Assembly (NCBI GenBank): GCA_037447435.1
Contig: JBBIGR010000006.1
Location: forward strand, 1-64,000
Direction: 5' to 3'
Source of the DNA: Fibrobacteria bacterium
GTDB lineage: Bacteria; Fibrobacterota; Chitinivibrionia; Chitinivibrionales; FEN-1185
DNA length: 64,000 nucleotides
Of the stretch, positions 103-16,436 are shown one piece after another (positions within the stretch are counted from its first letter, which is position 1; every line of letters begins with the position of its first letter). The position numbers were made by a program, and so were the translations under genes. The notes beneath the pieces are model-generated. The model saw only the letters and a program-made list of their open reading frames with translations, was not told the DNA's origin and made no database searches.

Positions 103-296
103 AAATGAGAACATATAAAATATTATTCCGCAAATGCGCGGGATGTGATTACCGTCACATTTATGCTTTTCTATTTGGTTCTTATTAGCCCGTTTATCAT
201 ATTATCATTGCATCTCTTCACGGCTATGCCACTTATTCTTCACAGGCATATGCCTTTTTAACAAGCAGTCACAATAGTACTGAAAGGAGGCCACCC

Positions 297-1055
297 ATGG
301 CCGATCAACAGGATTTTGAGACGTTGTTATCCACCCTCAATGGAATTGACAGGAAGAGCATTAGAAAGCTCGACATGCCTGTCGACCAGGCGATCAAAGA
401 AGGCGAAGTAATGGCTGCGGCGGCAACGGAAGATTCCGTAAAGCTTGCCGCAGTGGGTTTTGATGTTGCAAGAATCAATGCACTCGGCGCCGCTGTGGGG
501 GCCTTGCGATTTGCGCAGGCGCAGTATACGTCTACGTTGGGCGAGCATAAGGAAGCGACGAGGCAATGGGCCGCAGAAGAACCTGCGGCAATAGAACTGC
601 GTGCCGAAATGCTTGCGGCAGAAGCCTTTGCATTGCGTAAAATTCCCGATGCGGTAAAGGCCCTCAAGCATATTCGTGAAGGCAGCGGCAATCCAGACAT
701 GATTCAGGACATCGCCGGATTGGCCCAAGTCGGGAAAAAGTATCCCGATAGTTTAAAGAGCATAAATTTCGATCTTTCTATTCTTGATACGGCGGCGGAA
801 AAGGCCGGGATTCTCAGTAAATTGTATGCAAAAGCATTTATCGAAAACTCGACGACACAGGCCAAAGACCTGCGTGACCGGGCATTTTCGTATATGCGGT
901 CCATTATGAGTGACGTGTTGGAGGTTGCCGAATATGTTTTCCGTAAAGACAAGGCTAGGCTCGGATTTTATCATAGCGAATACAGAGCCAGGCAAAAAAG
1001 CAGTACGATGGAAGCTATAGTGATTCCAGAAAAAGCTCCTGCTACCGCAAAATAA
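297..1055 (+). CDS. hypothetical alpha-helical protein (252 aa)
   Basis: Clean ORF with strong RBS aaaggagg just upstream; Ala/Glu/Lys-rich helical composition; no catalytic motif recognised. Confidence 0.85.
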   Translation: MADQQDFETLLSTLNGIDRKSIRKLDMPVDQAIKEGEVMAAAATEDSVKLAAVGFDVARINALGAAVGALRFAQAQYTSTLGEHKEATRQWAAEEPAAIELRAEMLAAEAFALRKIPDAVKALKHIREGSGNPDMIQDIAGLAQVGKKYPDSLKSINFDLSILDTAAEKAGILSKLYAKAFIENSTTQAKDLRDRAFSYMRSIMSDVLEVAEYVFRKDKARLGFYHSEYRARQKSSTMEAIVIPEKAPATAK

Positions 1056-1067
1056 TCGTCATAGTAT

Positions 1068-1096
1068 CTTGGTGAGGGTACTTTGCTCTCACCAAG
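1068..1096 (+). other. stem-loop between the hypothetical gene and the periodic array
   Basis: cttggtgag(1068-1076)...ctcaccaag(1088-1096) perfect 9-bp inverted repeat, extendable by G-U pairs; no U-tract. Confidence 0.7.
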
Positions 1097-1098
1097 TC

Positions 1099-1645
1099 CT
1101 TGTGGAATCCTCGAATGTATTCATGGAATCTTCGAAATTGCTTGTGGAATTCTCAAATTCGTTCATGGTCGTAATTTTTTCATTAGTGGAACCGATTTTT
1201 TCATTCACGGAAACTATAAATTGTGGTCATGGAAGACGACCATTAAATCATGGACGATATATAATTATACATTTGTAAACATATTTTTGTTTATGGATTG
1301 CTTTTTTTTGCTTATGGAACACGAATATTCGGTTATGGAAGCATTTTTTTATTTTTTTCCGGTCTCCATTCCCTATTTCCCGGTCTCCATGACCGGTTTT
1401 TCCATTTCCATAACTACTATTTAAGGTTTCCATAACCATTTTTATGCCTTCCATGCAGCATGTTAAAGCTTCCATGCAAGCTTTCGGGGTTTTCATGCAT
1501 TAATTATAATAAAGCAATATTTCTATTTCAGTTTACATTTAAGCATTCCGGGCTTCCATGACCAAATTTAAATCATCCACGATTAATTTTAAAACTTCCA
1601 CTCACCATTTTATCAGATTACACAAACATTTTAAACTTTCCATGT
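1099..1645. repeat. degenerate 21-bp-period array with two oppositely oriented arms
   Basis: TGG(AA) cores at 1103,1124,1145,1166,1187,1208,1230,1251,1294,1315,1336; TCCA-type cores at 1365,1386,1407,1429,1450,1471,1492,1534,1555,1576,1597,1639; spacing 21 (occasionally 22) or multiples. Confidence 0.85.
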
Positions 1646-1812
1646 CGATTTATAGGCATGTGGAACAATAATTTGACATTTAAGGCATTGGAATATGATA
1701 TTAAGAAAAAGAAGAAATCTTATTTTTATAGGCCCAAATCGAATTTGACATCATCAACTTCGACATCAAATACCCGGATAAGCAAGGAACTTTACGGGAG
1801 TATGGAAAAATA

Positions 1813-2292
1813 ATGTCTTCCGGCATTTACAATCAATACACCGGTTATCACAATCGCCAATCAATCCGATTGCCAGGATACGATTATTCGCGGCCAGGAT
1901 GTTATTTCGTAACGATATGCATTCACGACCGGAAACAAAATTTATTAGGGAAGATTATTGAAAATAAAATGATATTAAACGAATTCGGTTTTATCGTGAA
2001 GAATGAAATATTGAAAACGGCGCAAATGCGTCCAAATGTGAAAATCGACGAATATGTAATAATGCCCCATCATTGTCATATTATTTATCATTTGAATGGA
2101 CAACGTAGGGGCACGTTGCAACGTGCCCCTACGGGAATAACCGCACCAATGATCGCATTGCAATATGGCACGGACCCACAAACCGAAGAATTCGGTAAAC
2201 CAACGACGAATTCAATTCCAACCATTATGCGCCTGACAAAATCAACCGCCACAAAACAAATCATTTTTTTGCGCAATACCCCTGGTTACTAA
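1813..2292 (+). pseudogene. REP-associated tyrosine transposase (RAYT, IS200-like Y1), C-terminally truncated
   Basis: RQSIRLPGYDYSRPGCYFVTIC and VIMPHHCHII (HUH) motifs; ORF stops before the WQRxY/YI..N segment that carries the catalytic Tyr. Confidence 0.8.
2104..2133. repeat. REP-type perfect 30-bp palindrome inside the RAYT gene
   Basis: cgtaggggcacgttg|caacgtgcccctacg, with GTAG/CTAC ends. Confidence 0.85.
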
Positions 2293-16320: not shown

Positions 16321-16436
16321 GGTTTACTACCCCATCCTCGGTCCTTCCCATTAACCAAGGGGAAGAATGACAAGGAAGGTTTACTACCTCATCCTCGGTC
16401 CTTCCCCTTAACCAAGGGGAAGGATGACAAGGAAGG
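16321..16436. repeat. 57-bp tandem duplication of a REP-like hairpin unit
   Basis: Near-identical copies start at 16321 and 16378, each with tccttcccc..ggggaagga dyad symmetry. Confidence 0.85.

Follow-up and report, generated by a model that had tools for sequence, protein, structure and literature searches.

A helically phased, two-armed repeat array beside a gene of an unnamed helical protein family in Fibrobacterota: a candidate protein-docking strip

The repeat array at positions 1099-1645 of the stretch of Fibrobacteria bacterium DNA analyzed here (hereafter the window: 64,000 nucleotides of contig JBBIGR010000006.1, assembly GCA_037447435.1) is a real, two-armed variant of a bacterial repeat class that has been described but not explained. 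The array keeps its period and is non-coding, it is linked to a gene family along which its core word turns over, and it has spread both as gene-linked and as orphan copies. From these observations we infer that the adjacent protein reads duplex DNA once every two turns and assembles along one of its faces. The array would then be a double-stranded docking strip for this protein, which is predicted to be rod-shaped, with one unit per two turns on one face of the helix, a reading to which we grant about an even chance of being correct.

Results

Organization of the array

Twenty-six units make up the array, arranged in two facing arms. The left arm (1098-1347, plus strand; 12 units, 1102-1335) bears the core YRTGGAA and a T-rich tract in mid-spacer, with RTGGAA words at 1102, 1123, 1144, 1165, 1186, 1207, 1229, 1250, (1272), 1293, 1314 and 1335. 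The right arm (1357-1651, minus strand; 14 units, 1364-1638) bears the same core inverted, which appears on the plus strand as TTCCAY at 1364, 1385, 1406, 1428, 1449, 1470, 1491, (1512), 1533, 1554, 1575, 1596, (1617) and 1638. In the three bracketed units the core is faint or missing, and their positions follow from the register, not from a match. The period is 21-22 bp in both arms, with a spacing of 21 bp in 21 of 24 steps and of 22 bp in 3. Autocorrelation at lag 21 is significant (z of 7.5 in the left arm, 7.4 in the right and 10.6 for both), with none of 1000 dinucleotide shuffles reaching this signal at any lag between 5 and 69, and the array is the sole such periodicity peak in the window (score 47, against 10 for the next best). 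A prior sequence-only reading of this DNA had proposed about 25 degenerate YRTGGAA/TTCCAY units every 21 (rarely 22) bp and a flip of orientation near 1350, and both proposals are confirmed at this locus: the inversion axis lies near 1352 (1348-1356), and the innermost pseudo-dyads are 33 bp, or about three turns, apart. The units are highly degenerate, to the point that Tandem Repeats Finder detects merely 2-3 copies. An assembly unitig of the probable source run, which does not constitute independent data, spans 300-1931 with no letter differing, and a search of 20 related genomes did not recover the array sequence.

A single pseudo-palindrome, TTCCA-TGGAA, contains the left and the right core as its halves, and the half that is best conserved in each arm is the one facing the array centre. 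The spacers of about 14 bp had been said to differ in every unit. They are indeed degenerate, but not unrelated, since identity among units is 0.38 in the left arm and 0.42 in the right, adjacent units show partial duplication and an A/T tract recurs in mid-spacer. The prior exclusion of a CRISPR array stands, because the spacers are degenerate copies of one another; a CRISPR- or TIGR-type guide array was rejected on these grounds, together with the lack of a notable Rfam match and of any recurring Cas, Nop or RT neighbor. In the window array the T-rich tract is about one turn away from the core, and spacers are T-rich on the plus strand in both arms, meaning that the tract keeps its strand when the core inverts. 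Among family arrays, the dyad symmetry of unit profiles exceeds that of column-shuffled controls in 39 of 53 cases, if modestly (0.45 vs 0.40), and in 19 of the 28 arrays that could be scored the distance between core and A/T tract is 8.4-10.5 bp, a count that omits arrays in which the core overlaps the tract and is thus biased away from zero. A and T tracts alternate within a single orientation in 7 of 15 arrays, and the excess of pyrimidine-purine steps in cores is weak (56 vs 48).

Coding and structured RNA as explanations

Each of the six reading frames contains between 6 and 18 stops over 1099-1645, in agreement with the initial argument against coding. The idea that the array is decayed heptad-repeat coding sequence, which we find scarcely credible, draws on the divisibility of 21 by 3 and on the open heptad frames that near-perfect arrays do yield (L029), but it has to contend with these stops, with a period of 22 or 21.5 in 16 of 65 family arrays and with an inversion of arms that cannot fit a single reading frame; the stops in all frames and the non-21 periods among relatives rule it out at the window locus. 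The proposal that the two arms fold back through TGGAA/TTCCA pairing into a long, ladder-like structured non-coding RNA fares little better, and we regard it as quite improbable. Predicted folding of the region is more stable than that of dinucleotide shuffles (z of -4.2; -3.3 and -5.0 by strand), as any inverted repeat must. Nonetheless, no antiparallel register of units pairs better than a random choice of partners (permutation p 0.72), G-U pairs are no commoner on the plus than on the minus strand (1.57 vs 1.72 per unit pair), and 12 of 14 arrays fold no better than arms with permuted units on either strand (12-20 shuffles each). The exceptions are C26, on the minus strand, and L003 (z of -3.0 and -4.6), which speaks for a ladder except that permutation of 21-mers breaks its 43-nt alternation. 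Altered predicted pairs in near copies are mostly breaks, with 6 compensatory, 16 one-sided and 53 broken on the plus strand, and 4, 26 and 44, respectively, on the minus strand. The single orientation of most family arrays also goes against a ladder, and the sole Rfam match, to InvR, lies outside the array and is weak, at the level of chance (27 bits vs 60).

The partner gene and its product

The gene preceding the array (297-1055, plus strand, with AGGAGG at 285-290) encodes a 252-aa protein, P0001, that belongs to no named family and is predicted to be all-helical and rod-like, with a basic C-terminal helix. A 13-bp hairpin devoid of a U tract (1068-1096, plus strand) lies between its stop codon and the array, and terminator-like hairpins are seen by eye at the equivalent place in many relatives. 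Upstream of the gene, a 5' leader (190-262, plus strand) is predicted to form a hairpin (arms 222-230 and 245-254) ahead of a T run, and may act as an attenuator. This leader is common to very distant family paralogues on C26, C58 and C44 and to a gene for a RAYT (REP-associated tyrosine transposase) at C6:70609, with copies at C26:63903-64094, C58:18763-18827, C44:28011-28075, C6:70445-70509 and C34:234-298; at the RAYT gene, a 38-bp fragment of a family gene comes after it.

P0001 is assigned to no family by Pfam or PHROGs and to no named one by the protein atlas. It resembles NF052641 (PQLLE) and Pfam DUF6261 in that these are helical proteins of about 250 aa without assigned function, but its 29.6-bit match to NF052641 is below the curated cut-off of 80; 23 of the 24 members of A1, the partner-family alignment, also match this model weakly. 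A profile search with the partner family returned 2,083 related clusters (50% identity, E<=0.001). The closest named relatives of P0001 belong to the Chitinispirillaceae (Fibrobacterota), and a more distant one is found in Galbibacter mesophilus, so that the family has members in Bacteroidota. Searches with P0001, P0050, P0060 and A1 turned up no family gene in phage, plasmid and viral-contig collections. The structural model of P0001 (pLDDT 86.7) is all-helical, with a predicted longest helix of 55 residues. Foldseek gave no match for the model at E<=0.001 in the PDB and viral structures, a VIA fold search produced generic helical bundles (best Z 8.6), which amounts to no match to a known DNA-binding fold and does not make the fold new, and the best E-value in a PDB sequence search was 0.11. 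Conserved positions across 151 family sequences comprise P28, E35, D46, W91, R114, D138, R193 (96%) and Y225, among which we recognize no catalytic motif. Family proteins are mildly acidic overall (median pI 5.6), and the C-terminal residues 216-240 have a mean net charge of +4.5. In the source genome each of the six partner-family genes is followed, by eye, by a phased array with its own core; by eye too, no array accompanies the PQLLE-like gene on contig C33.

Association of gene and array across the phylum

Arrays (z>=10) lie within 1 kb of the gene at 50 of the 71 family loci with at least 900 nt of flank on each side, against 14 of 1,244 control ORFs of 200-320 aa from the source genome, although the loci are related to each other and all belong to Fibrobacterota, so that these counts overstate independence and significance. 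The coupling of the array to its upstream gene, as first suggested, is thus substantiated. The 98 loci analyzed included 30 plus 60 of about 150 phylum matches, the 60 having been picked by E-value and contig position before their flanks were seen, as well as loci from further relatives and the six of the source genome; L006, L007, L009 and L010 were dropped as duplicates. The remaining 21 of the 71 loci have no array at the threshold, some of them carrying visibly degenerate ones (e.g. C58, G016). The distribution of the gene is patchy, with presence in 39 of 296 phylum genomes, often in multiple copies.

Sixty-five arrays could be classified by position, with 35 downstream of the gene, 28 upstream and 2 between or within genes, and by period, with 49 at 21, 13 at 21.5 and 3 at 22. 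In a lag spectrum of 183 flanks computed without favoring 21, maxima appear at 21, 42 and 63; shoulders can be seen at 22 and 43, and lags of 10-11 and 31-32 give no signal. The fixed 21-22-bp period across loci supports the notion that cores are phased at two helical turns. According to a quick tree, the linkage spans the whole protein family and the side on which the array lies mostly tracks protein clades, while the seven proteins of one clade have mostly differing cores. Core words turn over between loci and the period stays; the source genome alone holds at least five different core words. Free position and a side that follows clades are what would be expected of a DNA site rather than of a co-transcribed RNA. 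Among the 104 nearest neighbors of 60 loci (best 5 Pfam families each) there is no recurring partner, partition NTPase, Rep, Cas, Nop or reverse transcriptase, and the lack of a shared partner points to a two-part, stand-alone module. At the window locus the upstream neighborhood ends at the contig end.

As for the inversion, two-armed arrays number 7 of 65 in an exact-word test and 3 of 63 in a stricter profile test, both of which miss degenerate arms. By eye, 5 of the 6 gene-linked arrays of the source genome flip, as do several orphans, including the arrays of very distant paralogues. The flip is a real but optional layout, a minority across the family and favored in the source genome. Homologous loci thus reproduce the 21-bp period but not, as a rule, the change of orientation, and since most family arrays have a single orientation, the family as a whole cannot depend on loading from two directions; as a general feature, that part of the original proposal falls. 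The gap between dyads across the flip, with dyads picked by hand, is 33, 34, 52, 53 or 54 bp in the window, L002, L003, C2 and C30/C3. These five gaps approximate 3 or 5 whole turns, both odd numbers, and hint at an arrangement that would keep both arms on one helix face. On the other hand, C9 (48), C44/C4 (99) and C93/C2 (119) do not fit, and 22-bp slips blur them.

Several further arrangements were observed along the way. Tandem pairs of divergent family paralogues are common, usually with the array upstream of the pair (L013, L033, L036, L046, L049, L055, L059, L062, L066, L068, L071, L072, L079 and L083), and at L001 (3990-4874) a CRISPR-like array, by eye, comes directly after a 22-bp array. 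In the source genome, DUF6261 genes also have phased upstream arrays, clear at C16:12085-13444 and weaker before C17:91179-91958, C71:2806-3591 and C8:137248-138048, and sigma-54-like motifs can be seen by eye ahead of DUF6261 genes. A 163-aa gene without close relatives in the genome (C45:4820-5794) has a downstream array with a 42-bp period. Profile comparison detects no similarity of the partner family to DUF6261 (for which just four local sequences were used) or to the 163-aa gene, and P0001 itself has no DUF6261 match. The presence of phased arrays beside these genes makes the arrangement wider than the partner family.

Orphan arrays and mobility

About ten arrays in the source genome, located in intergenic gaps, have no adjacent family gene. 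Over the array, gene-linked and orphan copies share 84-92% identity in 3 of the 4 pairs aligned, the window/C9 pair being more diverged; the C44/C4 pair shows 90% identity over its best 244 bp. Two orphans keep 34-56 bp of the 3' end of a partner gene. The orphan at C27:64937-65420 keeps the last 56 bp of the 163-aa gene together with its terminator-like hairpin, and copies of the array next to the C16 DUF6261 gene are found on C65, C20 and C92 without a detected partner gene. Orphan ends proved ragged in six pairwise alignments, in which neither terminal inverted repeats nor target duplications were seen. Copies differ by the gain and loss of whole units, and the neighbors of family loci are unrelated to each other. 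In genome G016, five gene-plus-flank units of about 1.7 kb (L015, L039-L042) occupy different places with 87-95% identity, and a 41-bp direct repeat bounds three of the five. Flanking direct or inverted repeats were considered as a general boundary and discarded, as they occur at 7 of 86 loci, 3 of which are a single G016 lineage. The best reading of these sequence comparisons is that the module behaves as a mobile accessory unit, one that would copy itself around the genome and leave orphan arrays behind.

Downstream of the window array, 1813-2292 (plus strand) holds a RAYT-like remnant, which scores 30 bits against NF047646 (cut-off 80) and contains a perfect 30-bp palindrome (2104-2133); its link to the array is putative. 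Of the 23 arrays in the genome, 2 are found less than 1.5 kb from one of its five RAYT-like places (0.07 expected), and this proximity offers a lead on how pieces might move. Between array and remnant, a sigma-70-like promoter motif (TTGACA-18-GATATT; 1667-1707, plus strand) forms part of a partial copy of a separate repeated element outside the array. Fuller or partial copies of this element occur on C30, C16 (two), C93, C58, C26, C15, C2, C44 and C28, and the cassette combines a strong palindrome with sigma-70-like boxes ahead of defence-type genes (e.g. Cas3 HD, TcmP), possibly as a shared operator. Two other repeats were noted in the window: a multi-copy REP-like repeat near the contig end (48-110; 10 BLAST matches in the genome, high contig depth) and, between genes at 16321-16436, two copies of a 57-bp hairpin-type repeat.

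Discussion

Relation to known repeat systems

The closest precedent for the window array is the class of bacterial satellites of constant size and variable sequence, with 20-21-nt units, which form non-coding, species-specific families and whose function is unexplained (Subirana and Messeguer 2021, PMC8161180). Satellite units share a short conserved word, their length has been noted as two DNA turns, and the authors propose either that a protein polymerises along the DNA or that small RNAs are involved (PMC8161180); further reports deal with the same class (PMC8625621, PMC6749651). The window array shares with them the 20-21-nt period (within one nucleotide), the variable sequence, the non-coding state, the presence of several families per genome and the short conserved word. 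It differs in being far more degenerate, and in its partner gene, inverted two-arm layout and pseudo-palindromic core, none of which is described in the portions of that report on which we rely (PMC8161180). BrickBuilt, in Porphyromonas gingivalis, likewise consists of dispersed intergenic arrays of units of about 20 nt with shared flanks, but it is made of near-identical 23-nt direct repeats with small terminal inverted repeats, so that its period and ends are different, and the consulted sections of its description link it to no gene (PMC4596501). A BrickBuilt-like MITE is disfavored, as the six pairwise alignments show neither terminal inverted repeats nor target-site duplication. The RAYT-REPIN system, the subject of PMC3116915, also involves a gene flanked by repeats and orphan copies across the genome, often as inverted pairs. 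Unlike it, P0001 and the A1 members have no HUH/Y1 transposase match, and the window units are phased cores, not hairpin REPs, with no selection for pairing between arms.

The ParR-parC, TubR-tubC and SopB-sopC centromeres and the iterons of Rep proteins, the latter spaced at 21-22 bp, set helically phased sites beside the gene of their presumed binder. The window array resembles them in being phased and in adjoining a candidate binder gene, and among the readings first offered a centromere- or iteron-like platform is the better-fitting one. It does not extend to a classical partition or replication site, because the Pfam families listed for the 104 neighbors of the 60 loci include no linked ParA/ParM/TubZ NTPase or Rep initiator. 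There are moreover no matches in plasmid or phage collections, chromosomal copies are many, and units conserve only 5-8 bp; the P0001 model is made up of long predicted helices, with no visible ribbon-helix-helix or HTH, and fold searches yield generic bundles. Type III toxin-antitoxin systems are defined by near-identical structured repeats that always lie upstream of a terminator and an RNase gene. Such a system was rejected, given that 35 of 65 arrays are downstream and that no ToxN, CptN or TenpN Pfam match was found. Searches of open-access PMC and bioRxiv literature found no description of the gene-plus-array module.

A proposed docking mechanism and its rivals

Reading of duplex DNA is the interpretation most favored by the constancy of the two-turn period, by the variable position and side of the array, by its modest dyad symmetry and by an A/T tract located one turn off. 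At standard values of 1.5 A per residue and 3.4 A per base pair, the 55 residues of the predicted longest helix of P0001 measure about 80 A and 21 bp about 71 A, lengths to be compared for a protein that would bind once per two turns. The protein would read the short pseudo-palindromic core and the A/T tract one turn away, more through shape and spacing than through exact sequence, with contacts probably made by the conserved arginines and the basic C-terminal helix. In the window copy, the two polar arms would give rise to head-to-head filaments that meet near 1352 on the same face, and orphan arrays would provide sites in trans for the same proteins. In what is the weakest step of the scheme, coating would most likely organize DNA locally, by stiffening it, bridging it or blocking read-through, and so help the module persist or copy itself. 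Counting against a docking strip are the overall acidity of the proteins (median pI as above) and the failure of the modeled structure to match any known DNA-binding fold, as well as the loci without an array at threshold and the dyad gaps that do not fit.

Similar data could be read through a transcript instead. The array might be transcribed, with the partner protein binding each unit of the largely unpaired repeat RNA (or single-stranded DNA) in turn, much as in a type III antitoxin or a nucleocapsid-like filament. The T-rich plus-strand spacers of both window arms would suit such binding, as would a partner without recognized DNA-binding fold, and the 52-nt satellites of Bacillus coagulans are reportedly transcribed (PMC8161180, PMC8625621). 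We nonetheless deem it unlikely, because the position and side of the array vary, a terminator-like hairpin usually intervenes between the gene and a downstream array, the period of two B-DNA turns is kept whatever the sequence, many arrays use A and T tracts interchangeably and no per-unit structure is conserved. Unlikely to a similar degree is the option that a host protein, such as a nucleoid or enhancer-binding one, reads the array as a cis-regulatory or architectural site, with the gene as a regulated passenger and not as the binder. Unrelated-looking helical genes (DUF6261, 163-aa) lie beside such arrays, which leaves room for a host protein as their common reader; orphans do sit in intergenic gaps, and sigma-54-like motifs occur near the ends of some upstream arrays (5 of 97 family loci score at least 6 of 8, with 0.8 expected) and, by eye, before DUF6261 genes. 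On the other side, five or more core words in a single genome would be hard to reconcile with one sequence-specific factor, over half of the arrays lie downstream of the gene, behind a hairpin, and the window gene has no sigma-54-like motif; a general sigma-54 promoter for the family was in fact rejected, with motifs at those 5 of 97 loci and none in the window. Finally, the array could be a neutral minisatellite, or the cargo of a BrickBuilt-like MITE, accumulating in intergenic hot spots that also attract the gene. Partial duplication of neighboring units, gain and loss of whole units and the closeness of 2 of 23 arrays to RAYT-like places would fit this notion, but a linkage of 70% vs 1% that persists over a deep protein tree, core words that turn over completely under a constant period, and ragged orphan ends devoid of terminal inverted repeats or target duplications make it a poor candidate, with about half the probability of a repeat RNA or a host-read site.

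Implications

The nature of 20-21-nt repeats is a stated open question, for which a polymerising protein has been posited (PMC8161180); the window locus supplies both a candidate protein and a candidate site. Extending the docking-strip reading beyond this locus, we tentatively put forward a broader scheme, likelier to be wrong than right, of widespread and undescribed stand-alone modules. In it, a rod-shaped helical protein would measure two turns of DNA and polymerise on its own array whatever the core, the module would copy itself without a recognizable transposase and seed orphans as it does so, and the two-arm form would represent a head-to-head double filament; such proteins would be the missing readers of the 20-21-nt satellites. 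The strong genomic link to a large, unnamed protein family makes the satellite question testable. If true, a protein that reads spacing despite changes of core word would recognize DNA in an unusual manner, and might provide a modular DNA scaffold.
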